The position numbers and the translations under genes are program-made. DNA of 64,000 bases, taken from the NCBI GenBank assembly GCA_004764695.1, contig SMSO01000014.1:4846845-4910844 (forward strand). The letters are read 5' to 3'. The stretch comes from Schizochytrium sp. TIO01. Lineage: Eukaryota > Protista > Bigyra: Labyrinthulomycetes. Under the pieces are notes generated by a model, which was not told the DNA's origin, did no database searches, and was given only the letters and a program-made list of their open reading frames with translations. Below are positions 17,498 through 36,651 of this stretch, piece by piece (the stretch's first letter is position 1; each line of letters begins with the position of its first letter).

Positions 17498-17551
<54 letters not shown>
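17498..17551. repeat. (CAG)18 microsatellite
   Basis: Directly visible; not within a convincing ORF. Confidence 0.9.
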
Positions 17552-17552
<1 letters not shown>

Positions 17553-18494: not shown

Positions 18495-19166
18495 CTACGT
18501 ACATGCATGTGTGCTTGCAAGTCCAATGGTCAAGTGTAACTCTCCTGTTAATCGATCGTTGTGCTTGCAAGACTCATACATTAGAGTGCACTTTTTAATT
18601 ACTCGTTGTCTAGACATATCTAATTGCTTTGTAACCCTTTCTACTTGTTCTTGGGGGAGAAAGGGGCGAAGGTCCACTTCATAGAGCTCATAAAGGATGC
18701 CCAAGTGATTCACCGCTTCGAGCTTATCGAGAATAGTATCAGAGACAGGTGTGTAGTTGGCATAGGCTTCACAGATATGCATAATCTCACTTTCTGTGAG
18801 ATAGGCCCATAGCCCACTTTTTTCTCCGAAAAGCAAAATGACTGATGCTCGTAGCTTCAAGGCAAAGACTGACCATTCGTCGTTCTGTAACACGGCTTTG
18901 GTGACGTCCGCCCAAAGCTCCTGCGATATCTCATCGACCGATTTTCCTTGGAGGCTGGTGGCTTCATCAGTGAGCATTGATAAGGCTTGTTGCTCAATTA
19001 CATAATCATTAATGAGGACGTAAAGAAATGATAAATGACCAATGCGCGGAATGCGAGTGGGAAAGGGCAAGACTTGGGTTGCGCGCTGGCGCCTCCTATC
19101 TTTCGATGGATTGGGCCTGCGCCGCGCATCGCCCTGGCATGATTGACGCTTCGGTTGATGCTTCAT
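18495..19166 (-). CDS. Hypothetical protein with basic N-terminus; possibly 3'-truncated at the island edge
   Basis: 223-aa ATG ORF with A-rich leader and helical globular composition. Confidence 0.6.
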   Translation of the reverse strand: MKHQPKRQSCQGDARRRPNPSKDRRRQRATQVLPFPTRIPRIGHLSFLYVLINDYVIEQQALSMLTDEATSLQGKSVDEISQELWADVTKAVLQNDEWSVFALKLRASVILLFGEKSGLWAYLTESEIMHICEAYANYTPVSDTILDKLEAVNHLGILYELYEVDLRPFLPQEQVERVTKQLDMSRQRVIKKCTLMYESCKHNDRLTGELHLTIGLASTHACT

Positions 19167-19266
19167 TTTTTTTCATTGGTTAGAAGTTAGGGATTTGGTG
19201 GAAGGTAAGTGCGTCTTTTTTTTATATTATTATTATTAATTTATTTTTATTAAAAAAAATAAAGTA

Positions 19267-20231
19267 TTATGGAATATAATCCAAGAGCTTGCAAATATCA
19301 CCGTGTCTATGGCGCAAGATAATCACTACCTTGTTGAAAAGCCTACGGAGAGACGAAGAGGGGGGCAAAACAGATGCTCTGTGTTTCATCCCATTTATTG
19401 CTGAGTGAGTCGTCATGGCTAGATACCTGAGGTCTTTTTTTACTAAAAGCATAAGCTCATCATGAAATCGCCCGTTGATTCCAGTGATTCCATTGAAGAC
19501 AATGTGCTTGTAGTCACGCATCACAATGGTATATGTGTGATTAAAGGTATTTACGTGATTTCCTTCGGCACTGGTCATTTTTTTGCAGGCGCCAGTAGAT
19601 GCCATTTTGACGCGGGGGTAGCAAAACCCGAGCAAAACGCGAAGATAAGGGCGATTTTGTCTTCGAATAAGCAACAAGGAGATTCTAACAATCGCGCCAA
19701 AAGCTTCGGCGTCGACCTGTTCTTGCTCAGCTGCAATGGAATTCTCAGTCTGATTATAACCAATCAACATATTTGGTTGCAGAGTTGATATTGGTGCAGT
19801 ACCGTTCTTGATTCGGCCAAGACACTGAGGCAATGTGAAACAAAATAGCTGACAGCTGATCCTGTTTGATTTTGGTCGAACAACTTCTCGCACTCGGCCA
19901 AATGTTGCCTCGTTTTCAGGATGTAAGGCAATAATATGGATGCGTTTTGGTTCTGGAGTGGATTATCAGCGACTTGGTTGCAGAATGCATCATTATTGAA
20001 GAGCGCGAAAGCTTCAATAACTCCATATTCCTCGAGCACTTCAGAAATTTGTACACCAAATGACTGCATGTCCTCAACTTGGGCGTCTCTAAACGTCCGT
20101 TTGCCTTTACCATTCCCAGCCCAATCGGTGCTTTGGCAGTTGGGGCTACACTGCACACCCATCTTTGGTTGCCGCTGGCAGCGGTTAGTATTTAAAATAC
20201 AACCAACGAACGACACTGTACTATCTGACAT
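19267..20231 (-). CDS. Hypothetical protein(s): either two overlapping genes (ATATGTTGA junction ~19770) or one frameshifted gene
   Basis: ORFs 19764..20231 and 19267..19893; A-rich leader before ATG 20231; minus-strand AATAAA at 19240-19251 after the stop. Confidence 0.55.
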
Positions 20232-20283
20232 TTTTTTTTGTTTAAAATAAGAATTGTTTTTTTTTATTGTTTTCCAAAGAGAA

Positions 20284-20317
20284 ATGCCCAGTCATATATA
20301 TATATATGACTGGGCAT
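20284..20317. promoter_or_regulatory. Perfect 34-bp palindrome with a central TA run between divergent genes (candidate bidirectional TATA promoter)
   Basis: ATGCCCAGTCATATATA|TATATATGACTGGGCAT; centre ~70 bp from both ATGs (20231 and 20373). Confidence 0.7.
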
Positions 20318-20372
20318 GTTCAACGCCTCATTAAGGAATTTTTATTTTAATTCACCAAAAAAAAAAGAAAAT

Positions 20373-21035
20373 ATGGCCTTCTATACTCGCTTTAACTGGA
20401 CAACCTCATCTAATGATAAATTTGAAATCCCTCATACAGCACTGGACATTATCCTGGAACTTCTGGACCCAAATGTTGACTACCTTTGGGAACCCTTTCC
20501 TGGGACAGGCAGAAGTACGCTTCACATGCGCTCGCGCGGCTTCAGCGTCACGAACAACATCGGTAGTGAGGACTTCTTCGAGTCTGAACTGCCCAAACCA
20601 CCCGAGGGCAAGCGCCTTGTTCTGCTCTCTAACCCACCATATAGCATAAAGAAACAAATCATTGAACACATTGAATACAAACTTATGCCACAGGGCCTTC
20701 GAAGCGTGGCACTCTTCGTCCCAGCTTCCGTTCTCTACGCGGCCTACTTTCGGCCAATCACGGAAGGCAGGCACCTCCAAATGGTGGTGCATACTAGTCG
20801 CGTCAAGTTTATTGAAGCTGATACAGGAAAGGCTGTGGTCCCCAAGCCGTCGCGGAAAGGCCAGTCAGGCGCGAGCTTTGACACCGCGTGGTTATGTCTT
20901 GACTTATGCCTTCACAAAGACATTATTATCGCCTTGCCTGATGACAAGATAGGGAAAAATAAACGTTCAAGAAGAGAACGGGCAGAGGAGAAGGCATGCA
21001 AGAGGAAACAAATTTGCTCCCCAGCAAAACCTTAA
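20373..21035 (+). CDS. N6-adenine DNA methyltransferase (gamma-type motif order), with basic NLS-like tail
   Basis: Motif I WEPFPGTG, DFF, motif IV NPPYS; C-terminal KNKRSRR...KRK; ATG 20373 follows a poly-A leader. Confidence 0.85.
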   Translation: MAFYTRFNWTTSSNDKFEIPHTALDIILELLDPNVDYLWEPFPGTGRSTLHMRSRGFSVTNNIGSEDFFESELPKPPEGKRLVLLSNPPYSIKKQIIEHIEYKLMPQGLRSVALFVPASVLYAAYFRPITEGRHLQMVVHTSRVKFIEADTGKAVVPKPSRKGQSGASFDTAWLCLDLCLHKDIIIALPDDKIGKNKRSRRERAEEKACKRKQICSPAKP

Positions 21036-21041
21036 TTCAAG

Positions 21042-21473
21042 ATGGTCAAATATGGCTTTTGGCACTGGTGTATTGCCTGGGGGGTCTTAATTGGTGCATT
21101 GGGGCTATTCATATTATTGTCAAACATTCGCTTCATCACAAGTGTCATTAGTAATACAGTCCTTCTGTTTCACTCCCTTTATCTTTGGTTGTGCGGTTTT
21201 AGAGTAGATTCCTTGCATGATATGGGAAACTATATAGACTCGAGTCGTATCAGCAACGCGAACTCGCGCCTGGAAGAATTACCCAACTATTTTTCCAACA
21301 TCTGGTTTTTCTTCAAATTCATTCTTACCGAACCTATCAGGATGATGTGCAATGTGATTGGGTTGCTCTATTATATGGTCGTAATACAATTCGTATCCCT
21401 ACGAGCCCTACGAAGTGGTGAAGAGGTGATGCCTGCTGTCGAATCAGTTATGAAACAAGTATTGGAAGAGTAG
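21042..21473 (+). CDS. Small membrane protein, paralog A
   Basis: 143 aa, hydrophobic helices; aligns with the adjacent ORF. Confidence 0.75.
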   Translation: MVKYGFWHWCIAWGVLIGALGLFILLSNIRFITSVISNTVLLFHSLYLWLCGFRVDSLHDMGNYIDSSRISNANSRLEELPNYFSNIWFFFKFILTEPIRMMCNVIGLLYYMVVIQFVSLRALRSGEEVMPAVESVMKQVLEE

Positions 21474-21499
21474 CGAGCAGCAAAACCATAACTTGAACC

Positions 21500-21952
21500 A
21501 TGTTGGTCAACTTTGCTACTTGGTGCATCTGGTGGTTGGTTTTACTTGTCCTATGGATCTTCTGTGCATTGAGGTTAGCCTTGCGTGCAATGACCCTCAT
21601 TATCTTGAATGCCATCTTTGTGATTGTGTCATTCTATCATCTGTCATGTGGTTATAAAATCAAGACCTTGCCTGAGATGACGGATAACATGCACTCGAAT
21701 CTCCGGGGAATGTCCACCAACGTCTATGTTAGAGAGAGCGCTGACTCATACCTTCACGAAGTGGTAAATTGTATCTACAACATTGGCTGGGCCCTGGATG
21801 ACTCTATCATGCAACCAATGAGGATGTTGCAGACTATCTCGCTCATGGCGGCAGCCATTGTGGCGGTACAAGCCATCTCGGTGAAATCCATCATGACTAC
21901 AGGGGCTTGGCCCTCTGATCTCGGTGAAATCATAGACAAGTATAGAAATTAG
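21500..21952 (+). CDS. Small membrane protein, paralog B
   Basis: 150 aa; WCIWW/WCIAW, SCGYKIKTLPEM/LCGFRVDSLHDM and QPMRML/EPIRMM shared with paralog A. Confidence 0.75.
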   Translation: MLVNFATWCIWWLVLLVLWIFCALRLALRAMTLIILNAIFVIVSFYHLSCGYKIKTLPEMTDNMHSNLRGMSTNVYVRESADSYLHEVVNCIYNIGWALDDSIMQPMRMLQTISLMAAAIVAVQAISVKSIMTTGAWPSDLGEIIDKYRN

Positions 21953-22066
21953 TTTACATCATTGATTTGTGCGTTTGAAAAAAAAAGAAGATTTAATTAA
22001 GCATTAATTATAATAAAAAAAAACTACACTTATTTGGCTCGAGCAAACCTCCGCTCAAAGCTGGGT

Positions 22067-22224
22067 ATTTATGTATTCTTCTTTTTATTTTACTCTTTAA
22101 ATAAATCACGCTTTTCTCATATTATTACAGGAGGAGAAAACACTTGGATGGATTTATGTATTCTTCTTTTTCTTTTAATTGATTTTAATTAATTCATTAC
22201 GAGGTACGCTTTTCTCATTACAAG
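22067..22224. repeat. Imperfect ~65-bp direct duplication upstream of the REase-kinase gene
   Basis: ATTTATGTATTCTTCTTTTT...ACGCTTTTCTCAT occurs twice. Confidence 0.75.
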
Positions 22225-22324
22225 TTGTACACACACGCGAGCGAGCGAGGGAAAAGCTTCAATTGCAGCAAAACCATCATCAGCGGCAAGCAAAACGCAA
22301 ACGACAACCAGGCCAGGCGACAGC

Positions 22325-24232
22325 ATGCCGGACTCTGACGTCAGTAGTTTCTCCGAAAATGACTCTGATGTTGAAGATGATGTATATTCACTCGATCGCA
22401 TGAAGGGAATGAGCGACGAGGACCTTCAGGGTATAAACCTGGCTAGGGTAGACATGAATGGAAAAACCCTTAAATTTCTCCTCGGAAAACGCAAGCAATT
22501 GACCAATAACCAACAAGAGCTGCTCAAACAATTCAAGAAATTGGCACGGAAATCCCGTCAACGGGAAGAAGCAAGAGAACAACGGGGAATACAAATAGGC
22601 GTTGCTAGCTTGCAGGAGACCGTGACGGTGGCGCTAGAAAAGAACCTCTTTTCTAGCATTGCGTGGGAACTGCCGAAGTCTACAGCGAGAACACCATCGT
22701 CATGGGCTTTGACGTTTACCTCACTCATGGCGTGGGAGGAATTCGAGGAAGAAGTAATTTACAGTGAAGACTTTACGGGCTCTGATTTCCTAGGAGAAAT
22801 GATTGCGAAAGTTATTTTCAATCCCTTGCAAAAGCTCGACATTCGCCAAAATGCCGACAGTGCAAAAATACATTTCCTCACTAAGGTCTGTTATCCATTC
22901 CAAACCTTGGGGCAGGAGGTTGCTAACTTCCCTGAGATCAGTATTGAGTCTGAACAAAACATCGGTCTCGCACTGAAGTCGGATATTAACCTATTGGCAA
23001 TTGAAAATGAAAACGGGAGACAGGTTTCCAGGGTTTTCTGTGTCATCGAGGCAAAGCGACCAAACCAGTTCCTGACAGAACATGGGGGTCGAACAAATCA
23101 AACCGTGGAAAAACGCAGGAAGAGAGCAGAAAATATCGAAGCGGCCAATGATCCCCGCGGTCATCTTCGGGCTGGTCTCTGCCAGTTGCTTGGATACATG
23201 GTAATCTACGGTCTGAAGTACGGAGTTCTTACGTCTTTCGAGCTCACGTACTTCTGCAAGCGAGACGAAACAGGTCAGATGTGGGTTTCAAAGGGATTCT
23301 ACGGAATTCAGAAACAACATGAACCTAGTGTCAATTTTACGATGGCCGCGTTCATCTATAAAATCCTTCACGACAACGAAAGAAGGCTCCCCTACCCGTC
23401 CCTGCAGAACCAGTCGGTTGAAGTACAGGAGTTTTATCTACATTGCCAGGAGAGCTGGGGCGGGAAGCCGGTCGATAGGAATAACACACTCGAGATTTTG
23501 GAGAACGTTATAGGAAGGGCTTGCGCAGAGTTCATCAGAACCACGATAAAGAGAGCAGCCGGTGAAAACGACGAGATCGAGGCTCTCCGCGATAGAGTCG
23601 CCAGTCTCCTGCCTCTGAATGAGGAGGCATTCAGCATACCTCTGCCATGGGAGGAGGATTTTAATATTGTGGCGGAAGGTGTGGCTCGGATTCCTTGGAT
23701 TTCCTATGAAGGTTTCACATGGAACGTCTTTGTCAAAGCTATGCTAATTTCGAAGGATTGGCCGGCCTGGGTTTGGGCGGAGAACAAGGAGGCCTTTCTT
23801 AAAGAAGTTGAGTTCTACAAGGGCCCACTGCACAAATTGCAGGGTCTTTACATCCCTTTCTTGGTGTATGGCGGCGTGTTCCATGACCAAGTAATCATCG
23901 CCACGACCTCTTCGGGTTTAACTGCGACTAAAGAGCTGGTGATCACTCATCGTGATTGGGCGCCCCGTTCCATCAGAAAATCACTTGCGTGTGTGCATCA
24001 GGCGGGCGTCTTGCATGGCGACATTGCCTGGCGCAACATCGCGCTCGACCTGGAGTCCAAGACTGCGCATTTGATCGACTTTGGCCGCGCCACACAACAT
24101 AAAGACCCCAAGGAGTTTGAGAAGTTGCAAACTGAAGAAAAGGAGGCGCTTGAGGACTTGCTGTCCTGTGTCAGCGCGCGGAAGCGTCTGCGCGACTCAT
24201 TTAGATCTTTCAAGGAAGCACTTGGTGTGTGA
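22325..24232 (+). CDS. PD-(D/E)XK restriction-endonuclease-fold + protein kinase fusion (Crinkler-type REase-kinase) #1
   Basis: KSDINLL...VIEAKRP...LCQLLGYM...YGVLTSFELTYF nuclease-like module; kinase VFVKAM, KEVEFY, LHGDIAWRNI, LIDFG; AATAAA overlaps the stop. Confidence 0.8.
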   Translation: MPDSDVSSFSENDSDVEDDVYSLDRMKGMSDEDLQGINLARVDMNGKTLKFLLGKRKQLTNNQQELLKQFKKLARKSRQREEAREQRGIQIGVASLQETVTVALEKNLFSSIAWELPKSTARTPSSWALTFTSLMAWEEFEEEVIYSEDFTGSDFLGEMIAKVIFNPLQKLDIRQNADSAKIHFLTKVCYPFQTLGQEVANFPEISIESEQNIGLALKSDINLLAIENENGRQVSRVFCVIEAKRPNQFLTEHGGRTNQTVEKRRKRAENIEAANDPRGHLRAGLCQLLGYMVIYGLKYGVLTSFELTYFCKRDETGQMWVSKGFYGIQKQHEPSVNFTMAAFIYKILHDNERRLPYPSLQNQSVEVQEFYLHCQESWGGKPVDRNNTLEILENVIGRACAEFIRTTIKRAAGENDEIEALRDRVASLLPLNEEAFSIPLPWEEDFNIVAEGVARIPWISYEGFTWNVFVKAMLISKDWPAWVWAENKEAFLKEVEFYKGPLHKLQGLYIPFLVYGGVFHDQVIIATTSSGLTATKELVITHRDWAPRSIRKSLACVHQAGVLHGDIAWRNIALDLESKTAHLIDFGRATQHKDPKEFEKLQTEEKEALEDLLSCVSARKRLRDSFRSFKEALGV

Positions 24233-24338
24233 ATAAAATGAACATGAATATTTGGAACTCGTGAAAGACGATGAGGCACGTCATCGCTTTAATCAGAAAA
24301 TGAAGTAAATATTTTTTTTTTTCAAAGCTTATGCATTT

Positions 24339-25319
24339 TTAGATAGCATCTCCCTCCTCCTTGTCGCCTTCCCTTTGTTCTTCACTTTCCGAGTAAAGGA
24401 TGCATTTGTCGTCTTCATCAGGGTACTCTCTGGAAAATTTCGTTTCAATGTCCAAGGGCATGACAGTCGCCTCTGTGAGGTCAGTTGTTGCTGAGCGCAC
24501 CCTACCCATGCATTTTCGCTGAAATAAAATGATCGCTGCCCGTGCAACGAAAAGCCCCAGCACCATTCCCACCAAGAGACCGGACCCGAAAAACACATTC
24601 TTGATAATGAGATTCTCAATGCGAATCAGAATAATAAAGACCACTGCGAGGACCAATGCAGGCACTACGAAGGCTACCATGGTACATGCGTCTCCAACCT
24701 CGCATGCAAGGATGGGGATATAAATCATCAAGGCTGTGCAAAAGGTCATGGCCAGGCCAATGAAGAAACTGGACGCATTGTCATGGAGCGTGTGGCCTGT
24801 GGCACCAAAGCATAGCTCTGGCGATGAAGAGTTTAGTGTGACACAGGTACTATAAGGGTCTTTGCAAGAAAGAGCTGTGATATTGGCATCAGTGAATCTG
24901 GTTTCGACTTCATACTCCATGGTGGAGATGATGAGATTGTAGCCCATAAAGTCCTGGTCCAGTTCCACTGTTTCATCTTCCTGAACATGGTAGGCAACCT
25001 GAAGTGAGGTGGGGGCAAGTGGATTTAAATACTGGCTCGACTTGGCTGCACCGACAATGGACCAAATATAACCACTGCACGATAGTAAGTCGGGCTGGTT
25101 CGTGAAACTTGCACAAAGGTGATACTCGCATGAAATGACCTGATTAACACTATCCAATTGAAAGCTCTTGTCACTCACACTGGATGTGCACAAAAGCGTC
25201 TTACTTGATAAGTTAAGGTGGCAGCCAAGGACCTTATTGCTATAGTAACTGATAGCTTCCCCCCCAACTGCCGCAACTGCAACTGCCGCAAAGAGAATAG
25301 GGTAGACTATCACATGCAT
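24339..25319 (-). CDS. Signal-peptide-bearing Cys-rich membrane protein with C-terminal TM helices
   Basis: 326 aa; N-terminal hydrophobic signal, Cys-rich ectodomain with NxS/T sites, ~3 TM segments, acidic tail. Confidence 0.75.
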   Translation of the reverse strand: MHVIVYPILFAAVAVAAVGGEAISYYSNKVLGCHLNLSSKTLLCTSSVSDKSFQLDSVNQVISCEYHLCASFTNQPDLLSCSGYIWSIVGAAKSSQYLNPLAPTSLQVAYHVQEDETVELDQDFMGYNLIISTMEYEVETRFTDANITALSCKDPYSTCVTLNSSSPELCFGATGHTLHDNASSFFIGLAMTFCTALMIYIPILACEVGDACTMVAFVVPALVLAVVFIILIRIENLIIKNVFFGSGLLVGMVLGLFVARAAIILFQRKCMGRVRSATTDLTEATVMPLDIETKFSREYPDEDDKCILYSESEEQREGDKEEGDAI

Positions 25320-25437
25320 GGGAGCGTGACGGTTAAGTTTTTATCCATACTCTGATGAGCTAACGTATATATATCATCGCTCGCCTGCAGAAACAAAGCA
25401 AAATATTCACAAAACCTTAAACCAAGTGCATGACACA

Positions 25438-26562
25438 ATGGCACCGTGCCCGACTAGCCATGTCCCTGGCATGCATGGTCGCTCTGACCTTGAGTGCCCG
25501 AGTAACCGAAAGTCAAGAGAAACCCAAAGCCAGGTCTCTTCGGTACCAGAGACATGTTCGACAGGAAGCAGCCAGAGTGACATACCTCGTCGCTTCAGAC
25601 AAATTATCTTCTTCGATTTAGAAACGACAGGGTTTGCGCCTCTGCCGCTACTCGCCAAGAGCAACCAAATTGTACAGATTGCTGCCAAGCGACTGAGTGA
25701 CGGCAGGTTCTTCCAGAGTTTTGTAAACCCACAAATGTACATTCCGCCGCATAGCAGCAAGTTGCATCACATTCATAACAGAGACGTGGAAGATGCTCCT
25801 CCGTGGCCCCGTGTCTTGAGCAACTTCATCAGCGAGATGGAAATCGATGATGAAACCTGTCTCGTTGCACATAACTCAAAGTGGTTTGATGAAATTGTCC
25901 TGAAGCGCTGCTCGATGGAGACGGGAAGTCTAGGTCTCTTGCCACAGGGCGTTGTCTTCTGGGACACTCTCCTATACATGCGTGCCAACTACCCAGACAT
26001 GCCCTCCTACCGTCTTGGAGACTTGCATGAATTCTTCTTCGACGAACCGATTGAAAATGCACACCGTGCTGATGCTGATGTGGAAGCACTTATGCGTGTC
26101 TTCCAGCACTGTATCAAAGAGCCTGAGCTTAGCCGTTGGAGCCCAAAACCTCCCGTTTTCGTGAGCGATTTGCGATTTATAGGGCCCTACCGGACCCGTA
26201 TCGTGCGCGAGACCACAGGGGCAACAAACATCCTGGAACTAGCTTCTTACTTCGGCGGCGACTGGTATGCAATGAATAGATGGCTCTATGATGCCCTGGG
26301 CATTGCCAGTCCCTGCACTCGCATGATCATCATCGCACAAGTCTCCAAGATTGACCCCTGGAACGTGCAATTACTCAGCAACTTTGTGCCTTTGCGTGAG
26401 ATGGGCCTTGAGGGGGCCTTCGATGACGTGGACTATTATGTATCAAAGAGGTACATGGAGACTTTCGAAAGGCGCAACGACGAGGACCAAGAAGTGCCTG
26501 TCTTACGCAGCGTGTTTCTGAGCGGCCAAGCCAGAGCTATACATGCTATTATTGAATGGTAA
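25438..26562 (+). CDS. DEDDh 3'-5' exonuclease (DnaQ/TREX-like) with a C-terminal HhH-like motif
   Basis: ExoI FFDLETTG, ExoII AHNSKWFD, ExoIII AHRADADV; LRFIGPYRTRIV...GATNILEL. Confidence 0.9.
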   Translation: MAPCPTSHVPGMHGRSDLECPSNRKSRETQSQVSSVPETCSTGSSQSDIPRRFRQIIFFDLETTGFAPLPLLAKSNQIVQIAAKRLSDGRFFQSFVNPQMYIPPHSSKLHHIHNRDVEDAPPWPRVLSNFISEMEIDDETCLVAHNSKWFDEIVLKRCSMETGSLGLLPQGVVFWDTLLYMRANYPDMPSYRLGDLHEFFFDEPIENAHRADADVEALMRVFQHCIKEPELSRWSPKPPVFVSDLRFIGPYRTRIVRETTGATNILELASYFGGDWYAMNRWLYDALGIASPCTRMIIIAQVSKIDPWNVQLLSNFVPLREMGLEGAFDDVDYYVSKRYMETFERRNDEDQEVPVLRSVFLSGQARAIHAIIEW

Positions 26563-27115
26563 GCTAAAATTATACTCGGGTGGGGGGGCCCCACAATCTG
26601 AAGTGCGCGTTTTTGTTTCAAATACAAGTTTCAGAAGAAGTAATTGTATAGAAGCGGAAGTAGGAGGTCTTAGACAAACTCGACATTCTACGAACCACCC
26701 CAGTATTGCGGATATCGTAGAAGGCTACTCCGTCCTTGATCATTTCCTGGGTAGTCGAGTCAATACAGTTAGCGATCGGATGGAGAGTGCTGAAGCTGTT
26801 GTGGGGAAGCTTATTGAAATCGAGAACAGTACAGAGCGCGGCAAAAGGTTTAGTGAATATGTGCTCGAAAGGTTGAAACAGACATCTCGCTCGTACTTCA
26901 CTGAGTGGTTACGGTTTCTCCTCCAGTTTTTAGAAGTCCTCTCTAAGCTTCTCGAGGAGTACGCGGAATGTTCAAAAAGAGAAGGGGTTCTTCAATCTTA
27001 CCTACGGTTTTTATTGGGTTGTGCTGATTATAAGGCCTTCGTGATCAACCATAATCCATTAACTGTATGCAAGGATAAAGAAGAGTACGGCCGAAGCCTT
27101 AAAAGAGATCGATAA
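26543..27115 (+). CDS. Hypothetical protein (start uncertain)
   Basis: 190-aa ORF filling the gap between co-oriented genes. Confidence 0.55.
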   Translation: MLLLNGKLKLYSGGGAPQSEVRVFVSNTSFRRSNCIEAEVGGLRQTRHSTNHPSIADIVEGYSVLDHFLGSRVNTVSDRMESAEAVVGKLIEIENSTERGKRFSEYVLERLKQTSRSYFTEWLRFLLQFLEVLSKLLEEYAECSKREGVLQSYLRFLLGCADYKAFVINHNPLTVCKDKEEYGRSLKRDR

Positions 27116-27143
27116 ATCACCTAATGGTACAGATACGGTGATT

Positions 27144-28043: not shown

Positions 28044-28075
28044 ATAAAAAAAGATCTGGCAATGTTTGTGTAAGC

Positions 28076-28438
28076 ATGAGTAGTTGTTGTGACGCAGAGT
28101 GTGGTGGTGCCTGTGCGGGATTTATTGATGAGCCAGCCCCGCGCTATGTTGAGGACATCCCGGCTTGGGAGTTAAGGCGTTTGCGGGCGGCAGTTGCCCT
28201 TGAGGTGAATGAATTGGTTTTGAGAAAAAGCATCCAGCGGGCTCTCTCCGAGAGATACAAGCAGCTTGAATTTGAGCGCCGCGACAAAAGCCGCACCTCC
28301 AACGGCGAGGCGCTCTACCTAGACTACGAAGGATATTACAACCAACGCTATCCCTCCACGATCCCTAACCCTTATAGCGCACTTGCAAGGCCCAATATGT
28401 ATGTTCGAGCTATCCATCATGCTTTTCCCCAAAAATAA
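28076..28438 (+). CDS. Hypothetical protein with Cys-rich N-terminus
   Basis: 120-aa ATG ORF in a compact gene array. Confidence 0.55.
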   Translation: MSSCCDAECGGACAGFIDEPAPRYVEDIPAWELRRLRAAVALEVNELVLRKSIQRALSERYKQLEFERRDKSRTSNGEALYLDYEGYYNQRYPSTIPNPYSALARPNMYVRAIHHAFPQK

Positions 28439-28517
28439 TCTCTCTTCTTTTTTTTTCGTCTTTCTCTTAAAGATAAACATGGTGACTCATGGCAGTGGAT
28501 TTTTTGAATACGAAGTC

Positions 28518-29060
28518 TTAAAAGATAATCTTTAAGTTTTTAATTTCTTCATTCTTGAGAGGCTCCTTGAAAAGAGCTTTCTTTTGATCGACCTTGGTTG
28601 TTTTTGCAGTATAAAACCACAATGCCGACGTCAGCCAGGCAAGCATGAAGATAATGCCTAAGATGATCATTGTGTAATTGCTCTCGAATCCAAAGGTGGC
28701 CAGGACCGTCGTGTCGATGATAGAGCCATGGCCGTCCCAGAGTTTGATGCCCCCGCATGTATACTCGTTCCATGCATTGAGGAGGCAGGTGGATGTGGAG
28801 CCGCATTGGAAATTTGAAGGAATGCATGACTCACCATCATCCTTTACCATATTTTGACAGACGCTGGCCGAGGAGCCGTCTGCATTGTCTAAAATAAAAC
28901 ATGCAAACCCCGTACGGCACACTCTGTGATGTGTGTAGTTTGAGGCCGTCAGGGTGATTCCACAGATCTCGCCTTCATCCATGTAAGTGACATAGGCAAG
29001 TGACCCGTAAATCGATGTGGGTGCATAAGTAACAGGGGATGCTGATGGGGAGAATGACAT
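28518..29060 (-). CDS. Small Cys-rich single-pass membrane protein
   Basis: 180 aa; eight cysteines in the ectodomain, one TM helix, Lys-rich tail. Confidence 0.7.
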   Translation of the reverse strand: MSFSPSASPVTYAPTSIYGSLAYVTYMDEGEICGITLTASNYTHHRVCRTGFACFILDNADGSSASVCQNMVKDDGESCIPSNFQCGSTSTCLLNAWNEYTCGGIKLWDGHGSIIDTTVLATFGFESNYTMIILGIIFMLAWLTSALWFYTAKTTKVDQKKALFKEPLKNEEIKNLKIIF

Positions 29061-29122
29061 TTTGTTCTACTTAAAACAATGACGAAATCAATATATTTTT
29101 ATTTTATATATTTTGTTTTAAA

Positions 29123-29385
29123 GTTTAAATGATAATTGAGTATTTTTTTTTTAATTCCTTTGTGAGTGTTATATGAAGTAATGTTTAAATGGTAATTGGG
29201 CTTTTTTTTTAAAATATACTTGTGAGTGTTATACCTATAAATTGAAGTAATGTTTAAATGATGTTTGGGTATTTTTTTTTAAATTCACTTGTGAGAGGAA
29301 CACTGAGTTATATATATATATATATATATATATAGTTAAAACCATAAGAGTAACTCTTACATGGCGGTTAAGTATTTTTTTAAAA
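29123..29385. repeat. Three ~60-70-bp AT-rich tandem repeats followed by a (TA)n run and a short hairpin
   Basis: GTTTAAATG..TTGRGTATTTTTTTT..TTGTGAG x3; (TA)n at 29309-29334; TAAGAG-TAA-CTCTTA at 29345-29359. Confidence 0.8.
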
Positions 29386-30326
29386 TGCTAAATTAATTTA
29401 TCAATTAGGGTTTAGACTATATATTATCACTAGGGCATTGGCTCAAGCTGTCAGGAGTGTTCCTAACGTTCCGATTGTTTCATCGATATCATGATTTGCT
29501 CCTACACGATAAAGCCTCGCTTCACACAAAAAAAGAGAAAAAAAACTTTCAACCTATCTCTAAATTCTAAAAAAAATGACGATCAACCAGAAACTGACTA
29601 ACCAAATATTGTTCCAAAAGTTCTATTAATTCTATTTATCTATGATTTGATATTTTTACAATTCATATTAAATAAATGTAGAATGGAGAAAAAAGCTATT
29701 TCTTAATTGAACTTAACACAATCGTTAGAATCACTCAGTATCTCTTTTTTTTCTAAAGAAAATAAGGAATTGGATTCATTCCCTCACCCACAAAGCTTTT
29801 CTTAAATGCTGTTCCAAACGTTCTCGGAGATGTAATGGAGTTTGAAAAGAAAGTGTAATAGGATTGGTTGTGTTTAATGGTAAGTATCACTATGGAGTCG
29901 CTCGATTGCTTGATTCAATTAGTTTCGAAACGCGTGAGTGTATTTGTGTAGGAAGAAGAAACAAACGTGCTAGACAGTATGTTAGTTGTCTAATCCTAAA
30001 TATCAATTTGGCAGGAGAGGCTCTTCATAAAGAGAGGTTATGAATAATAATAGTAAGGTAGGAGGGTAGACTGAATGATTGAAAACATTTTTTTTTGTGT
30101 TTTTTTTGCCAGTGTTGATGTTTGGTATCCCTCTACAATTAGATGCAGTCGCTCCCTCTTAACTCCACTGCGACACATGCCTATAGTATTAATTACATTT
30201 ATTTCTAGTTTTCCTCACAGCATTTATTTCGTGTCTATAGTCTTTCCACTGAGCTCTAAATTTTTCGTGAGGTATAGTTCTTGCAAACACCAACCTCCAT
30301 CTGGGGTTGGTCCTAAGTTGAGAGAA

Positions 30327-32372
30327 ATGTTGAAATTTTCCAGTTTTTTCACCAAGGGCAGAAGTCAAGACCATACGGATGTCAAATTAGTTGATGCTCT
30401 ATTGGAGAATCCTATATTGACAGATGGGGTGGCAGCATCAACCTACCTAAACACGCTATCATCTCTGCGCTCCTCTATGAAAAATCAGGGTGCAGAGGGA
30501 TTTAGAACGTCGGAAAGTCAGCGTCGATCCCACGCACCAGATGGAGAGCCTGCTGGCAATGTAGGTGCACAAGCTGAAGTTCCCATGAAACCTAGTAATC
30601 TTTTCCCATGGAATAGTTTTGACGAAGAAGTTGGACTAGAAAGCAGAGTAGAGTCTCCCACTCTCCAACTCCTGGTGAATCCAACATCGTTTAGACCTCG
30701 ACAAATTTATACTACACGATCCTTGGAAAGGACATCTGCTAACTTGTTCATGACAACGTTCGGAACACCCTTCACGGATTATTACTCATACCAGTTTCGC
30801 AATTCAGACGATCCTAGGCAATCACTGTCATGTTCCCAGGAGTATGATCTCACTTCTTTTCGCACCGATGCTTTGTGGACAATGGTTATTCAACAATCAT
30901 CTCCTCCCGGATTGACTGACATTTTTGGTTGTTCTACCTCTCTAGATGAATATCCACTGCTACCCCACGAACACAAGAACCCACGCACGTTTCCCTTTCT
31001 TGCCGAGCAGTTTCAAGAACTTAACGCATTTTTCGATGACAAGAACAACGTAAACGAGGATGAAGACGACAACCGCAAACCTTCTAAGGACCCTGAAGCT
31101 GAGATTGAATTCTTACAAAAGAAATGGATTAAAGATGTGAGCTACGATAGAACTAAGCTGAAAATGCCCTATGAAAATTTGATCGCTTATTGGAATCGTG
31201 CAGGAGAAGATACACGCCCCGGCATGACCAATAAGTATCGCTATCCGATTATACAGATCTATATTTACATGATTCGTAAGATGACTAAGTATGGCGTATT
31301 AAGTACTTTGGACCATACTTGGTTTCTGAAACTCGACGAGAATAACAACTTGCATATCTCAAGATGTTTTAAGTTCGACGGAGTCGGGACAAAAAATAGC
31401 ATGCGGTATGCCTATGCATGTCTTATTGAAACAGTGCTGGACAATGGTTGTCGGCTGCAATTATCGAAGGACATGCTTATCAAGGCAGGCGAGATTCCTT
31501 CACAGAGAAAAATGCTTCAATCTTGGTTGGACGTGTACAATGAACTAGCACAATCACACGGTCTTGATTCGTTGGACTCAAACACCTCTGGGTCAAAATC
31601 GAAGAAGGGGGGGTCTGGCCGTAATGGTAACACTAGAAAAGGTGGAAATGAAGATTGTGAGGATGGTGTTTCTGATACATTAGATGGTTCCAATAGTAAG
31701 GAAACTGAGGTTGGTTCTCAGAGAGGGTTTCGTAGGAGCACCGATCATTTTCAAAAACTTCGTGAAATGCTACCTTTCCCTCAAGATCAGTTCGAGTACT
31801 ACGGAGGTGTTCATGACACTCTTTACCAGTCTTCACATGGCCAGTTTGGTGGCATGATGCGAGTGACGACTAATGGGGTTGATACTGTCGTCAAGGTTCT
31901 AGATCCACAAAAAAATGTTAAGGGCGAATATCTTAGTAAGGAGGAAGCCGAAGCCAAGAGTGCTGCTCTTGGGCTTCAAGTCTTTCGAAATGAGATGGAT
32001 GTGTACGAGGTTTTGCGTCCCATCTGGGGAACTTTTGTCCCCTTCTATCTGTACGGTGGTTATCATCTTTTTAATGACTTCATTATCGCACTTACCTTTG
32101 AAGGTAGGTGTCTTGATGATTTATCGATGAAGGAGATTACTGTTGAAACGATGAACAAAGCTCGTGCTGCCCTCGATGCAGTGCATTCTCTGAACGTAGC
32201 TCATAGGGATATCGCACTGAGAAATTTTGTACTGAATCATGTGGGTGAAGTTCGTATTATTGACTTTGGTATGGCAAAAATAAATGCATCTAAGGATGAA
32301 ATGAATAAGGACGTGCGATCCTTCAAGAGAGAGTTTCTATTCCTTGACAGAACGGCGACATCTGGAATTTAA
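30327..32372 (+). CDS. REase-fold + protein kinase fusion (Crinkler-type) #2
   Basis: FRTDALW...HEHKNP...IIQIYIYM...YGVLSTLDHTWFL; kinase VVKVLD, NEMDVY, HRDIALRNF, IIDFG; ORF open from 30075, probable ATG 30327. Confidence 0.8.
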   Translation: MLKFSSFFTKGRSQDHTDVKLVDALLENPILTDGVAASTYLNTLSSLRSSMKNQGAEGFRTSESQRRSHAPDGEPAGNVGAQAEVPMKPSNLFPWNSFDEEVGLESRVESPTLQLLVNPTSFRPRQIYTTRSLERTSANLFMTTFGTPFTDYYSYQFRNSDDPRQSLSCSQEYDLTSFRTDALWTMVIQQSSPPGLTDIFGCSTSLDEYPLLPHEHKNPRTFPFLAEQFQELNAFFDDKNNVNEDEDDNRKPSKDPEAEIEFLQKKWIKDVSYDRTKLKMPYENLIAYWNRAGEDTRPGMTNKYRYPIIQIYIYMIRKMTKYGVLSTLDHTWFLKLDENNNLHISRCFKFDGVGTKNSMRYAYACLIETVLDNGCRLQLSKDMLIKAGEIPSQRKMLQSWLDVYNELAQSHGLDSLDSNTSGSKSKKGGSGRNGNTRKGGNEDCEDGVSDTLDGSNSKETEVGSQRGFRRSTDHFQKLREMLPFPQDQFEYYGGVHDTLYQSSHGQFGGMMRVTTNGVDTVVKVLDPQKNVKGEYLSKEEAEAKSAALGLQVFRNEMDVYEVLRPIWGTFVPFYLYGGYHLFNDFIIALTFEGRCLDDLSMKEITVETMNKARAALDAVHSLNVAHRDIALRNFVLNHVGEVRIIDFGMAKINASKDEMNKDVRSFKREFLFLDRTATSGI

Positions 32373-32451
32373 TATAGTTACTCAACAAATAACTAAAATC
32401 AATCTTGTTATGTTTTATCACTTCTATACATTTTGTTTTCCAAAGTAAGTA

Positions 32452-32574
32452 AGGAACACCGAGTTATGTCTATATGAGTGATCCTTGGGCGATTCTTAAC
32501 TCGCTGGTTAATGTATATCTACCGAAAACCCTACAAGCAATTCTTGCATGGCGGTTGAGTATTTTTTTTTAAAA
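32452..32574. repeat. Diverged direct copy of the 29296-29385 element
   Basis: AGGAACACYGAGTTAT and AAAACC-N17-ATGGCGGTTRAGTATTTTTTTTAAAA shared by both copies. Confidence 0.75.
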
Positions 32575-32672
32575 CTCATATGTGGGGTACATACTGAGTA
32601 ATATCTACATACGGGAAAATACTAGAAGTAATTTTTGAATGATGGGATTCCTGTGACAAACAATGTTCTATT

Positions 32673-34115
32673 ATGATGACGGAATTGCAAACAGAAATCC
32701 TTGCAGAAACTATTCGTCGAGCGCAAGAAGCAATGGACGCGGACAAGGTTGTGGAGAACATGGCCCCTGGCGGGGCCAGCGATGCCGATGGAGGACAGCG
32801 TGGTCCTTCAGCTACTGAGACATCGATCATGAAGCAGCGCCGTCTACTGCTGTTGCTGGCCCCGATGGCGGCGGCATGGCGGGCCCTGAAGTTCTGCACG
32901 ATTGTGCCAAATCCACTGGATCCGGTGCTTCAAGCAATGCAAGGAAGAAGCAGCCCTGGGTAACCCCCAAGGGTGAGTATGAAGACGTGGACTACCTCTG
33001 TGAAGACGGCTATGCGTCTTCGGATGACAGCGGGTGCGTCATCGTTGATGACAGCGAGATGCTATTCTTCAATGAAATTTTGTTCAGGGTCGCCGAGTCT
33101 CTTGAACACGAGCATGACATCGTGAAGGACGAAGTCTACTTCAACTCTCCTCGCGAGGAGCCGAGAGAAAAGACCTGGTTGGTGCCTGCTACGACCATCA
33201 CCACCGAGACTATGCAGGCAGCCGCTGGAATGATGAACTTGCCCTCTAAATTCATCACCGGTACCGTTGGCGAGGTTTTCTGGACACTGACAGTAGTGGA
33301 CAAGGCAACGCAGCTGGTGATTAATATGGTTCTCAGCTACCATTATCTCATTAGCAAGCACCCCTTGGGGAGCCCGGGGTGTTACAAGGATATCATGGGC
33401 TACAAGCTTGCGCGTGGCGCGGTCCCGGAAGGCGACCTTGATGCCTTTTGTGTCACTTATGCCCTCCTTATTATCCAAGTCTCGGTCTGTAGAGAGATGA
33501 ATGCCAAACTTGGCCTGCCATTTCAGTTGCAGCCCCTTGACACGGGAATGATTGACTACAGTGACGTCAAGGCAATTATGTCGCCTTACAGCGAGCATTT
33601 TGACAGGAATGACGCCTGGCCTATGCTAAGGTGCCGCATTGTGGCCATCGCACAGTATGCCAAGAAGCGCATAGTTTACCGGGGGACCTTTGGTGCATGG
33701 AGCGGCCCGCAATCCAGTACGGTAGTTGGTGGCCCACCTCTGCGCCTAGGTCCGTGCTCGTACAAACGATACGTGCATATCGTGCAGCGCATTGCGAAGA
33801 AAAAGCTGGAGGCAGTCAAGCAATTGGGTGAGGATAACAGTGTCAGTGACCTTGCCATCTACATTCCACAGGTTGTCCCAGTCACCAAGAGGGACAGCAC
33901 TTCTTCTACTTCGACATTGACTCAGTCCGGTCAATTTGCGGAAACGAGCACAACCACCACGACGACAATCACCACGGTCACGACCAAGCCAATGAGCATA
34001 AAAGACATGTCTTCTGAAGCTTCACCCGCCAAGTCCACCAAGAAAGCTGCCAAGTCCACCAAGAAAGCTGGTGGGAAGAACAGGCTCAGGGGGCGGAGTT
34101 CTCATCAACTTAAGC

Positions 34116-34164
<49 letters not shown>

Positions 34165-34652
34165 TTGATGGATATGCTTTTACCTTTACCGTTGATGGTA
34201 AGCGTGTAAAGGACGATTTCTCAAGCGATGAGGATGAAGACGAGGCGCCTGTCAAGCGGAAGGCCGAGGCTCGCACCAAGCCGTTGTCCAAGGTCAAGCT
34301 TCCCTCCAAACCCAAGTCCAAGGCCAAGCTTCCCGCCAAGCCCAAGTCCAAGGCCAAGCTTCCCGCCAAGCCCAGGTCCACCAAGAAAGCTAGTCGGAAG
34401 CGCAGGGCAGACGAGGAGGTGGAGGAGGAGGACGATGACGATGTCATCAGCTACAGCAGTGTTGGTGAATCCGACGATGACTACGAGTCTATGATTCTCC
34501 CCGAGAATGACGTCGAGGACATGGCCAAGGAGCCCTCAGGCGGTAAGAATACTGGAGAAGAACAAGACCGGCCCCTTGACCGCAGAAGTCGCAGCAAGAT
34601 ATGCAGAAAGAGCCAGGAAGCTTATTTGCAAAACTACTTTAATGGTCGTTAG
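32673..34652 (+). CDS. Hypothetical protein with poly-Asp tract and histone-H1-like Lys/Pro/Ala repeats; split by two frameshifts (~32820, ~34075)
   Basis: ORFs 32673..32963, 32876..34120 and 34071..34652 join with single-base changes; (GAT)~16 at 34116-34163; 30-bp repeats encoding KAKLPAKPKS. Confidence 0.65.
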
Positions 34653-35066
34653 TTAATAATAATAAGAATAACTTGGACTTGAATGATTTGTATGTCCCAT
34701 GAGGTAAGGAATCATTTCATCGACGAGTTCCTCGGGGCGTCGATTCACAAACCACCAGTTTTCAATGTGCGTCCCGGGATTGTCTCCCTGGCGCACAATT
34801 GATACTTCACTGGGGTGTTTCCCAATTACTTTAGTAAATCCATTATCATTTCGCATAACCACTTCATGGCCCATGGAAAGATCGTTGAAGAAGCGCCTCC
34901 CATCAGGCCCAAGCGCGAGCTTTTCTGGCAAAAACGAATTGCATACAGGGTCTCCAGAAATATGCAAAAATGTCATGAGGTCGCCTTCATTTGATATGTA
35001 CGCATCAAGTACCTTCCCGACCGGTTTATTTGTATCATGTTCAATAAAAACATCCAAGTTCATCAA
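34653..35066 (-). CDS. Capsid maturation (prohead) protease, HK97/assemblin clan SH, probably N-terminally truncated
   Basis: VFIEHD..KPVGKV (catalytic His), DLSMGH (catalytic Ser), SEVSIVRQGDNPGTHI; in-frame TAA just upstream; stop abuts the convergent gene's stop. Confidence 0.75.
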   Translation of the reverse strand: MMNLDVFIEHDTNKPVGKVLDAYISNEGDLMTFLHISGDPVCNSFLPEKLALGPDGRRFFNDLSMGHEVVMRNDNGFTKVIGKHPSEVSIVRQGDNPGTHIENWWFVNRRPEELVDEMIPYLMGHTNHSSPSYSYYY

Positions 35067-36651
35067 GATTTATCGCGCCGAGGTTGTCATTGTGGCAGTG
35101 AGGGAATGGTGCTTCATTCTGGAGGCATTGACGAACTGCACGCCACGCAGTCATTCCAATTCACCCTCGCTCGCAAGATGATCGCCGGGGCTAGCCTGAA
35201 ATGGGAATGGGATGCTGGCTTCATGCGCGTGCTGCGCGTGGCGTGAGAAAGCAAGGCCTCCTCGCCAGAGATTGATTCCTTGATTCCCTGATCCGTTGAT
35301 CCTCTCACATCGATTGATTTAGTAAAATAATTGACTTTACCGAATGAGTGCCGAATTGAGTGAGGGACCGACTGGCCAGCTAAAGACCACTTTGGCTGGC
35401 TCACACCACTGATCAGCGCGAACGACCTTCCAAGCTCCCCGCTGCTCACAAAATTAGCATCGAATACAGCCTTTTGGTTACGAAAAGACAAAGCGCCAAG
35501 ATAGACCAAGTCTGAGAATGTGGAATCGCGATTTGAGATCTCCAAGCAACCACTCGAAGGTTGCTTCTATCAAAATTTCACCTGATCAAATCAGGTTGAA
35601 ATAAGTTAGTCGCTCCAAGCTCAGAGCTGGAACTTTCAAGTTGTGTCTTAGAATAAGAATCCGCAAATGGACCACGGTGATGGAGATCTTAGCATAACTG
35701 GTTTTGAACGACGGTGATGAGGAACACAGTTACATAGTGAGCACACTTACAGATAGTATCTAGCTAGGTAGTATGGAGATTCGCAAGCTCAGCTTCATCC
35801 TCGAATATCGAAGGGGGGAGGAGTCTGATTCCTGAGGCAGTAGTAAAGGATGGCCAACTTGGAAAAAGGTCTGTCGAGAAATTGCTGAAGCAAACCGGAA
35901 TTTGAAGAGATGATAAAAATACGAAGTGCCTTCTCCCTCCGGCCCAGAGAATCAAGAAGCAGTCCGTGGCTTATGAATCCTCTTACCTCGGCCGCCTTAT
36001 GAAATTGTCATGGTCTTCCATGGGACATGGTAGGTAGGAAAGATCCTTACAGCCAATGTTCCCATGATAATGAAAGCAAGATAAATAATAAGGATGATGA
36101 TGATTATTGTTATTTTTTGATGTATTTTATGAAATACCTACCCTGGTACCAGGGTTTATATAATGGACAAAGGCAAGCGTGTTGAGTGAATCTTTTGACT
36201 TGAAACTTTACCCAAGTTTAAAAATCTTAATTCAGTACCTCTGACTGGTGAGAGTGAAAGGCAAGCACTTGCTTGATTCCAGGAGAAGACTTATTGCTAG
36301 TACTTTAAACTAAGTCATTTGCAACTCCAGTCAAAAGAAAATGAGGCAACTTTCATGTAACAAGTTTTCCTTCAATCAGATAAAAGAAAGCATATTTGTT
36401 TTTCAAAATGTTGACAATTAATGATCACATAGATTTATTTTACGTAGCAATAGTTCATTGAAGTCATTCTTTTTGTCCAAGCATATAAGTAGTATTTCAA
36501 CCCTTTTTAAGACGAAGGCGAACAAGGAAACTATATCCAAACTTTGACATGAACATATTTTTAGCGACGCGCGTCTCAGTTATTTATAGGTATAAATTGT
36601 GCATCATAATACATTAGGTATCAGGTGTTCGCTTGTCTAGAGTGCTCTAAA

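Follow-up and report, generated by a model that had tools for sequence, protein, structure and literature searches.

The window analysed here, i.e., the whole stretch of 64,000 nucleotides, harbours a mirusvirus-derived island of 16,488 bp (18,574-35,061) between genes of eukaryotic host type (APC5, tetraspanin, bHLH, WD40). The preliminary description placed this block at 18495..35070; its length of about 16.5 kb stands, both ends had to be moved, and with the limits at 18574-35061 the ORF at the left end also crosses a junction. Mirusviruses are large viruses of protists with kinship to herpesviruses. Many of the island genes have counterparts in two mirusviruses of Aurantiochytrium limacinum, the episomal AurliV-1 (PMC12606086) and the chromosomally integrated AurliV-2 (bioRxiv 10.1101/2023.06.15.545109; PMC12606086). 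The features of the locus are as follows (X numbers denote public runs).

18574..35061, unstranded: inserted mirusvirus-derived segment; the joint 18573->35062 skips its 16,488 bp in runs X9, X13 and X22
18554..18593, unstranded: left host-virus junction, between 18573 and 18574, bridged by contigs of X1, X2, X9 and X17
18495..19166, minus strand: orphan ORF crossing the left junction, last 26 codons from the flank; no Pfam/PHROG match
19267..19770, minus strand: orphan ORF, 167 aa; no Pfam/PHROG match
19764..20231, minus strand: orphan ORF, 155 aa; no Pfam/PHROG match
20284..20317, unstranded: perfect palindrome of 34 bp, core TA, within a divergent spacer, read from the sequence
20316..21035, plus strand: N6-adenine DNA methyltransferase with NPPY motif, counterpart of AurliV-2 ORF 599
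21042..21473, plus strand: small membrane protein, member of a paralogue pair, resembling AurliV-1 ORF 178 by eye
21500..21952, plus strand: small membrane protein resembling AurliV-1 ORF 178 (best stretch 14/30 identical, by eye)
22325..24232, plus strand: kinase 1, C-terminal atypical Ser/Thr kinase (Pfam Pkinase E 1.6e-5, below the cut-off)
24339..25319, minus strand: Cys-rich multi-pass membrane protein, counterpart of AurliV-2 ORF 674 (19/43 identical, ungapped, by eye)
25438..26562, plus strand: DEDDh 3'-5' exonuclease, matching AurliV-2 ORF 400 by eye, C-terminal extension included
26543..27115, plus strand: orphan ORF, 190 aa, overlapping a multicopy stretch of ~100 bp (26572-26677)
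27144..28043, plus strand: orphan coiled-coil-like ORF, 299 aa; no Pfam/PHROG match, no usable ESM Atlas match
28076..28438, plus strand: orphan ORF, 120 aa; no Pfam/PHROG match
28518..29060, minus strand: orphan Cys-rich membrane ORF, 180 aa; no Pfam/PHROG match
29107..29400, unstranded: AT-rich tandem array of 60-69-bp units plus (TA)13, with a related unit at 32511-32611 beyond kinase 2; joint 32563->32489 in 7 of 8 runs
30327..32372, plus strand: kinase 2 (Pfam Pkinase E 5.9e-9), same family as AurliV-1 ORFs 729 and 460
32673..34652, plus strand: one likely gene over three frames, acidic with a Lys-rich tail (sequence, contigs)
34653..35063, minus strand: N-terminally truncated HK97-type capsid maturation protease (clan SH), recognized by relatives, tree and fold
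35042..35081, unstranded: right junction, between 35061 and 35062, bridged by an X17 contig (34774-35434)

The dense packing of ORFs that first drew attention to the block was confirmed: within 18574-35061, 83% of the sequence is taken up by 17 ORFs of 96-765 aa, compared to 39% outside, a contrast somewhat inflated by an outside value that took in only ORFs of at least 150 aa. The short spacers (-20, -7, 6, 26, 28 and 32 bp) and the TATATA tracts, present in all three divergent spacers, were likewise confirmed; one of these tracts is contained in the 34-bp palindrome, which is likely a promoter element. Other reported contrasts proved weaker than claimed: AATAAA lies near the stop in 3 of 15 island ORFs versus 0 of 10 flanking ORFs, and microsatellite arrays of at least 16 nt number six in the left flank, two in the island and one in the right flank. 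The GC profile does not set the island apart (0.449 versus 0.458 and 0.453 in the flanks), and the initial ORF inventory had missed both kinase genes (22325-24232 and ~30327-32372).

The truncated protease carries the assignment to mirusviruses. Its two closest full-length relatives, P0002 and P0050, emerged from a search of 1.84 billion proteins and a profile search, and in sequence are AurliV-2 ORF 402 and AurliV-1 ORF 343, both annotated as HK97 capsid maturation proteases. The island protein is 58% identical to the AurliV-2 protease and 61% identical to that of AurliV-1 over 121 aa, retains the invariant residues His9, Ser63, Glu86 and Ser88, and in a single-gene tree groups with AurliV-1, AurliV-2 and a Hondaea copy (support 99/96). 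Its structure model (pLDDT 88.6) matches the fold of HK97 prohead proteases and herpes assemblins. The proposed identity as a prohead protease is thus shown by relatives and fold, with no match in Pfam, PHROG or PDB sequences and none among longer proteins by word search. The suspected cut at the right end was also borne out: the first ~45 residues are missing, homology starts at the junction (residue 2 corresponds to residue 45-50 of the 170-175-aa relatives), and the best match of the relatives' N-terminal 55 residues in the window reaches only E 0.06.

A clan SH protease, which had been named together with the HK97-type virion module as defining Duplodnaviria, does not alone prove membership, since the top structural match (BFVD) is from the Pseudo-nitzschia multiseries DNA virus, which we take to be a mriyavirus relative; the structural matches are only 8-22% identical. 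The mirusvirus origin itself stands, owing to the specific relationship in sequence with genes of AurliV. The top BFVD match prompted us to weigh a mriyavirus origin, which was dropped, as the AurliV kinship is far closer; the text of the mriyavirus paper does not mention a protease. The marker of Mirusviricota origin, a mirusvirus-clade HK97-type capsid maturation protease, is present, with its N-terminus missing. Judged by sequence, the island represents a putative third mirusvirus lineage, Soporavirales-like and with ~60% protease identity to AurliV-1/-2, both of which are associated with Soporavirales in two papers (PMC12768974; bioRxiv 10.64898/2026.07.28.741200). Scans of IMG/VR with the protease, an alignment, the exonuclease and the methyltransferase, and of JGI with protein P0051, yielded no locus.

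Including the protease, at least eight ORFs are akin to AurliV-1/-2 genes. The others, at least seven, comprise the methyltransferase, the exonuclease with its divergent membrane neighbour, the two small membrane proteins and the two kinases; apart from the protease and kinase 1, these matches were counted by eye. The methyltransferase shares 43 of 78 residues with AurliV-2 ORF 599 (ungapped, by eye). Its initial annotation agrees with PHROG 799 (E 4e-15), and that of the exonuclease with Pfam RNase_T (E 2.8e-19). The exonuclease and membrane protein genes keep the divergent arrangement found in AurliV-2.

Kinase 1 is multicopy in host genomes and shows raised contig depth. A relative, P0057 (33% identity, E 7.6e-54), is identical to AurliV-2 ORF 915 over the 400 residues compared. 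The N-terminal region presumably bears the restriction-endonuclease-like motif with which we label it; the structure model is too poor (pLDDT 40.6), and the nuclease-like domain is putative. Kinase 2, also multicopy, shares 25 of 46 residues with the AurliV-1 family by eye and has a lower GC3 (0.40). Its ORF opens at 30075, the likely start is at 30327, and contigs of presumed RNA runs begin at 30317-30344. This gene was possibly inserted later, given its low GC and its position splitting the repeat array. Host transposon insertions were dropped as the main reading for the kinases, because the same families occur in AurliV-1 and -2. Other copies of the split gene at 32673..34652 differ by indels at 32829 and 34088.

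Seven island ORFs, including the one at the left junction, are orphans, and six motif probes from orphan ORFs retrieved nothing from the AurliV tables (entries of up to 400 characters). No island ORF scanned for a terminase ATPase-nuclease gave a P-loop or terminase match, and the island is therefore filed as a fragment and not as a provirus. Pfam and PHROG, profile sets without mirusvirus profiles, gave no match to an HK97-fold major capsid protein, portal or triplex 1/2. Among the island ORFs the same sets also gave no match to an informational module (PolB, RNA polymerase subunits, TFIIS), or to the double jelly-roll MCP, A32 ATPase and VLTF3 of Skiavirales/Ariadnavirales and Mriyaviricetes, where the orphan ORFs leave a small gap. 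The island is a non-autonomous mirusvirus fragment.

Integration, as claimed beforehand, is supported by junction-bridging contigs together with an empty site in independent public runs. The island is colinear with host DNA, flanked by host genes and joined to them by supported junctions, as befits an endogenous viral element. At the right junction the ATG of the protease straddles 35061/35062, and an X2 contig holds 30 island letters, one below our bridging rule. The left host flank contains a 12-bp direct repeat (18509-18520 and 18560-18571). The empty site is found in 3 of the 8 public runs compared, from three studies (X9, X13 and X22), and five other letters stand between the flanks in place of the island; the X22 contig extends 495 and 1,319 letters on its two sides. 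Both alleles occur in the DNA runs X9 and X13, where the depth of the island is roughly half that of the flanks (X9: island 107-115, flanks 197-206, empty-site contig 119; X13: 22-27, 43-48 and 31, respectively), contig depth not being equal to copy number. This pattern fits heterozygous strains or mixed cultures. X13 has zero cover at 27324-27987, and no contig joins across the gap. That X17, X18, X20 and X22 are RNA runs is a guess, none being recorded as RNA, and one island-bearing DNA run may be the window's own source.

Single-copy island contigs show 9 mismatches to the window in ~29,600 letters (sum of four DNA runs), and the island copies are near-identical across four studies. Flank mismatches are higher (about 5 per 800-1,570 letters in X2, X9 and X13). 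In X2 the contigs fork at precisely 35061, and in X1 the depth at the right end of the island is doubled; both could reflect a sister copy of this end (32.5-35.06 kb) elsewhere in some strains.

Taken together, we consider it highly probable that the locus holds a fragment of a thraustochytrid-type mirusvirus, present in the chromosome of some strains and missing at the same site in others; the route of capture was likely end-joining at a chromosome break, not a viral integrase. The early observation that terminal inverted repeats and target site duplications are lacking holds: neither end is repeated within 4 mismatches in 20 nt, and the target letters were replaced, not duplicated. Pfam and PHROG gave no integrase or transposase match among the island ORFs, and the hallmarks of an integrase- or transposase-mediated element (Polinton, PLV, DNA transposon) were not found. 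The proposed end-joining is upheld in that five target letters were replaced without duplication or terminal repeat; the pathway itself we infer.

According to this scenario, a persistent nuclear mirusvirus distinct from AurliV-1/-2 (protease ~60% identical) would have shed a linear piece. Host DNA that is non-coding and probably transcribed would have broken and been rejoined with this piece at the cost of five host bases, with microhomology of a few bases possibly helping the ligation. The left island end may cut a viral gene, the ORF at this junction being an orphan. The event would be recent and the allele still segregating. The fragment would be unable to make virions and at an early stage of decay (frameshifts). 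Transcription probably persists for part of its genes, chiefly the two kinases and the gene at 32.7-34.7 kb.

An old insertion with a later deletion, which left a five-letter templated filler as the “empty” allele, appears unlikely. The five letters and the sequence around them are similar to a near-duplicate 50 bp upstream, which is what templated repair would yield. That the empty-site letters prolong the alignment to this near-duplicate (73 of 5,000 random continuations score equally) speaks for the capture scenario, but the near-duplicate could just as well have templated a filler during a deletion, and 137 of 1,024 possible five-letter fillers match equally well. Moreover, the left ORF may be a complete gene, its stop lying 79 bp beyond the junction. 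Yet, a deletion would need to end within a few bases of the limit of protease homology, the search of the joined flanks gave no viral-like ORF, and the near-identity of the island copies across studies also opposes an old insertion.

Second-hand arrival inside a skiavirus (Nucleocytoviricota) or another mobile element already holding mirusvirus genes is very improbable. Skiaviruses do carry Soporavirales-derived methyltransferase and kinase genes, and the kinase regions and short stretches of the island are multicopy in host assemblies. However, the island holds a gene of the virion module, the capsid protease, which clusters with AurliV-1/-2, whereas descriptions of skiaviruses and ariadnaviruses name an OTU protease in its place; the gene pair is still arranged as in AurliV-2, and no transposase, integrase or terminal repeat was found in the island. 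A chimeric assembly of a free virus or bacteriophage with host DNA is largely refuted and hardly merits consideration, even though the protease fold is common to phage prohead proteases: several independent studies provide junction-bridging contigs and a matching empty site, the closest protease relatives are mirusvirus proteins, and tblastn of the protease and methyltransferase found no match among 50,697 phage records, which also speaks against a Caudoviricetes prophage.

Beyond the capture of a single fragment, we tentatively propose, with rather low confidence, that persistent mirusviruses continuously seed thraustochytrid chromosomes with multi-gene fragments by break repair, in a manner resembling NUMTs. 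The locus would then be a young segregating allele whose right end has an almost identical second copy at another place in some strains, and donor, empty site and product would all be readable. Transcribed genes combining nuclease-like and kinase regions could aid the spread of the insertion among strains.

For thraustochytrids, the literature already records integrated mirusviruses as well as gene exchange between virus and host. The island resembles AurliV-2 in its thraustochytrid chromosome, related protease (58%), methyltransferase, DEDDh exonuclease with adjacent membrane gene, and kinases. Yet, AurliV-2 is a subtelomeric genome of ~300 kb that lies between rDNA units and has a complete virion module without obvious erosion of the genome, whereas the island is interstitial, 16.5 kb in length, partly frameshifted and devoid of a terminase match, with a cut protease and a known empty site. 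With AurliV-1 it shares the closest protease, ORF 178-like membrane proteins and the kinase family of ORFs 729 and 460, but AurliV-1 is circular, high-copy and virion-producing, and its protease has different neighbours. Only one mirusvirus integrant is well described, a complete genome in a subtelomere that has been explained by subtelomeric recombination; in a 2026 review, integrants are expected near telomeres. The accessible parts of the papers on Soporavirales footprints describe multicopy kinase and methyltransferase genes common to mirusviruses and thraustochytrid nuclear genomes, as well as partial mirusvirus regions in eukaryotic assemblies (bioRxiv 10.64898/2026.07.28.741200; PMC10827195); unlike for the island, these parts give neither breakpoints nor an empty site or a polymorphic insertion. 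Skiaviruses and host nuclear genomes also share the kinase and methyltransferase families (bioRxiv 10.64898/2026.07.28.741200).

Our literature search found no published case of a resolved empty site with base-exact breakpoints. The locus offers a rare base-exact view of how mirusviruses enter host chromosomes; exact breakpoints, an empty allele and apparent two-allele strains render the capture route, age and effect on transcription testable. The locus also suggests a physical route for the virus-to-host transfer of kinase and methyltransferase genes, previously inferred from gene trees. The giant-virus insertions of Acanthamoeba are comparable as scattered partial viral insertions in a protist genome, but are of Nucleocytoviricota origin and silenced by methylation (PMC12210455); A. 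limacinum is reported to be without 5mC (PMC12606086 supplement).

The inserted segment (island) is real, young, segregating and non-autonomous, a fragment that derives from a third mirusvirus of Soporavirales-like type. Part of the region 17000-26900 is present in 22 of 24 listed public sequencing runs (11 studies), eight of which, one per study, were compared. Three of these (X9, X13 and X22) join position 18573 to 35062 with five other letters between, a flank-to-flank joint that skips the island and marks an empty site; in X22 it lies within a single 1,824-nt contig (495 letters of left flank, the remainder right flank). Among the matches listed, contigs from X1, X2, X9 and X17 bridge the left junction and a contig from X17 the right one, X2 falling one letter below the bridging rule. 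Bridging contigs and empty joint together define an insert of 16,488 bp at 18574-35061 and render a chimeric assembly very unlikely; the limits first proposed, 18495-35070, were close but not exact.

X9 and X13 also carry the island, at depths of 107-115 (flanks 197-206) and 22-27 (flanks 43-48), respectively, and the empty-site contigs supply roughly the rest. Heterozygous strains would account for the presence of both alleles, as would mixed cultures; contig depth is not a strict measure of copy number. In X1 and X2 depth is flat and the empty joint is absent. At 18451-18473, X9 and the filled-allele runs X1, X2 and X17 differ from the window by three bases and one indel, and the empty-allele sequences of X13 and X22 are identical to it; the window may mix the haplotypes of a heterozygous source or be a recombinant.

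Formation of the empty allele by later deletion of an old insertion is improbable. It would have required a break within a few bases of the former virus-host border. A similar copy of the letters at the empty site lies 50 bp upstream, with a score equalled by 73 of 5,000 random continuations, but also by 137 of 1,024 five-letter fillers; this likeness fits an old local duplication or templated filler and does not decide on a deletion. Single-copy island contigs from four DNA runs show nine differences from the window in about 29,600 letters. The flanks differ more, a sign of a young allele, and indels between copies at 19165, 27089, 32829 and 34088 indicate that decay has begun.

The island is a dense block, as the preliminary description had it: 17 ORFs of 96-765 aa occupy 83% of 18574-35061, versus 39% outside (there counting only ORFs of at least 150 aa), and six spacers do not exceed 32 bp. 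Scans against Pfam and PHROGs confirm the methyltransferase and exonuclease assignments and add two kinases overlooked earlier. The features compared with the Aurantiochytrium limacinum mirusviruses AurliV-1 (episomal) and AurliV-2 (integrated) are as follows, identities in fractions being counted by eye, ungapped, against AurliV translations:

20316-21035, adenine methyltransferase (MTase); AurliV-2 ORF 599, 43/78
21500-21952, ORF; AurliV-1 ORF 178, 14/30
22325-24232, kinase 1; matches P0057 (33% identity, E 7.6e-54), which matches AurliV-2 ORF 915
24339-25319, membrane protein; AurliV-2 ORF 674, 19/43
25438-26562, DEDDh exonuclease; AurliV-2 ORF 400, 17/31 (N-terminal) and 15/26 (C-terminal extension)
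~30327-32372, kinase 2; AurliV-1 ORF 729, 25/46
34653-35063, minus strand, capsid maturation protease

Ahead of its C-terminal kinase domain, kinase 1 has a putative restriction-endonuclease-like motif region. The protease, kinase and by-eye matches tie at least eight island ORFs to AurliV genes; seven ORFs and a split gene (32673-34652) are left as orphans. Island and AurliV-2 share the divergent arrangement of membrane and exonuclease genes (ORFs 674 and 400), beyond which gene order is not conserved between island and AurliV.

TA tracts occur in all three divergent spacers, as claimed, one of them within the 34-bp palindrome described below. An AATAAA signal stands close to three of 15 island stops and none of 10 flanking ones. 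Only the left flank is rich in microsatellites, and island GC equals that of the flanks. The flanks carry genes for eukaryotic proteins (APC5, tetraspanin, bHLH, WD40, MMPL), among them an MMPL/RND-family transporter of 1,006 aa (9055-12075; Pfam MMPL E 3.5e-51). The named protein relatives described below suggest a thraustochytrid host. A perfect 34-bp palindrome with a TA core (20284-20317) separates divergent viral genes and is the window's only non-TA-repeat palindrome of such kind with arms above 11 bp.

The ORF at the right end, of 136 aa, finds 39 relatives in a set of 1.84 billion representative proteins, with invariant His, Ser, Glu and Ser. Its closest full-length relatives, P0002 (58% identity) and P0050 (61%), are identical to AurliV-2 ORF 402 and AurliV-1 ORF 343, annotated as HK97 capsid maturation proteases in the PMC12606086 supplements. 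A 38-row tree groups it with both and with Hondaea GBG28598.1 (support 99/96). The structural model (pLDDT 88.6) resembles HK97 prohead proteases (30 matches at E <= 0.001) and herpesvirus assemblins (at best E 1.9e-3, none below 0.001). Relatives and fold thus bear out the prohead protease assignment. The top structural match, Pseudo-nitzschia multiseries DNA virus (PmDNAV), presumably is a mriyavirus relative. As suspected, the gene is cut: its ATG straddles the right junction, where homology begins, and the N-terminal ~45 residues are absent, also from the rest of the 64-kb window. With the first predicted strand lost, the enzyme is probably inactive. Six metagenomic relatives (P0018, P0020, P0021, P0026, P0030, P0037) form a separate clade of this family (support 98/99), in which an extended coiled-coil region is fused C-terminally to the protease, reminiscent of a protease-scaffold fusion.

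Kinases and MTases are shared with skiaviruses, which would allow second-hand delivery of the segment by a skiavirus or mobile element; the virion protease does not favour this route, which is highly improbable. An assembly chimera or a phage can practically be dismissed, being contradicted by the sequencing runs; 50,697 phage records (tblastn) contained no match for protease or MTase. The AurliV-related protease, at least seven further ORFs, the bridged junctions and the empty site all uphold a partial integrated mirusvirus genome.

Ends, empty site and cut protease were observed directly, as was the absence of duplication, repeats and an integrase: neither island end recurs in the window, and the five target letters were replaced rather than duplicated, in line with the reported lack of TIR/TSD. 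The capture route we infer: end-joining would have placed a fragment from a persistent nuclear mirusvirus in a chromosome break, at the cost of five host bases. The codons just beyond the right junction read Leu-Met, in agreement with some protease relatives (P0011: Leu-Leu-Asn-Leu-Asp-Val); microhomology of a few bases is possible, if unproven. No convincing gene is present in the joined flanks (open frames reach ~150 codons), and these lie within one contig of X22, a probable RNA run, so the target site likely is non-coding and transcribed. Lacking terminase and replication genes, the fragment cannot be autonomous. Coverage by probable RNA runs (a status guessed) extends over the kinases, the pair of membrane and exonuclease genes and the 32.7-34.6-kb gene and shows no GT-AG joint; such cover of multicopy genes is not assignable to the island locus.

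Episomal and integrated mirusviruses are already published (PMC12606086; bioRxiv 10.1101/2023.06.15.545109), as are partial mirusvirus regions and kinase/MTase exchange with thraustochytrid nuclei (bioRxiv 10.64898/2026.07.28.741200; PMC10827195). A mirusvirus insertion with resolved breakpoints, empty site and strain polymorphism was not found by literature search or in the passages covered of these four or of PMC10132985, PMC12210455, PMC12911909, PMC12768974, PMC11253617 and bioRxiv 10.64898/2026.08.29.747986 and 10.64898/2026.06.19.733378, for the preprints in their main texts. The island is unsurprising in kind, yet opens the integration route to direct testing.

In some strains (X1 depth about doubled) there are additional copies of the kinase regions and of 32.5-35.06 kb; X22 covers these but lacks 20020-23339 and 24668-25995. 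In X2 one contig stops at 35061 and the next starts 30 letters before, a hint that a second path may branch off at the last base of the island. A stretch of about 100 bp at 26572-26677 is highly multicopy in each of the four DNA runs, with many loose ends; it may represent a small mobile element of the host, or a shared motif of viral origin, within ORF 26543-27115. At 32489-32563, seven of eight runs contain a joint that steps 75 bases backwards across 12 intervening letters; other copies thus have tandem repeats of this unit, which is part of the array 29107-29400.

A second mirusvirus-like stretch, more decayed than the island, spans 53870-59200. Its kinase gene (54351-54896, 54971-56074) is broken and closely resembles AurliV-2 ORF 95; a membrane ORF lies at 56216-56803, and 58621-59199 holds the remnant of an M12B metalloprotease, a kind also present in AurliV-2 ORF 1013. 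GC across 52500-60000 is 0.413, and a 46-bp tandem repeat occupies 56066-56210.
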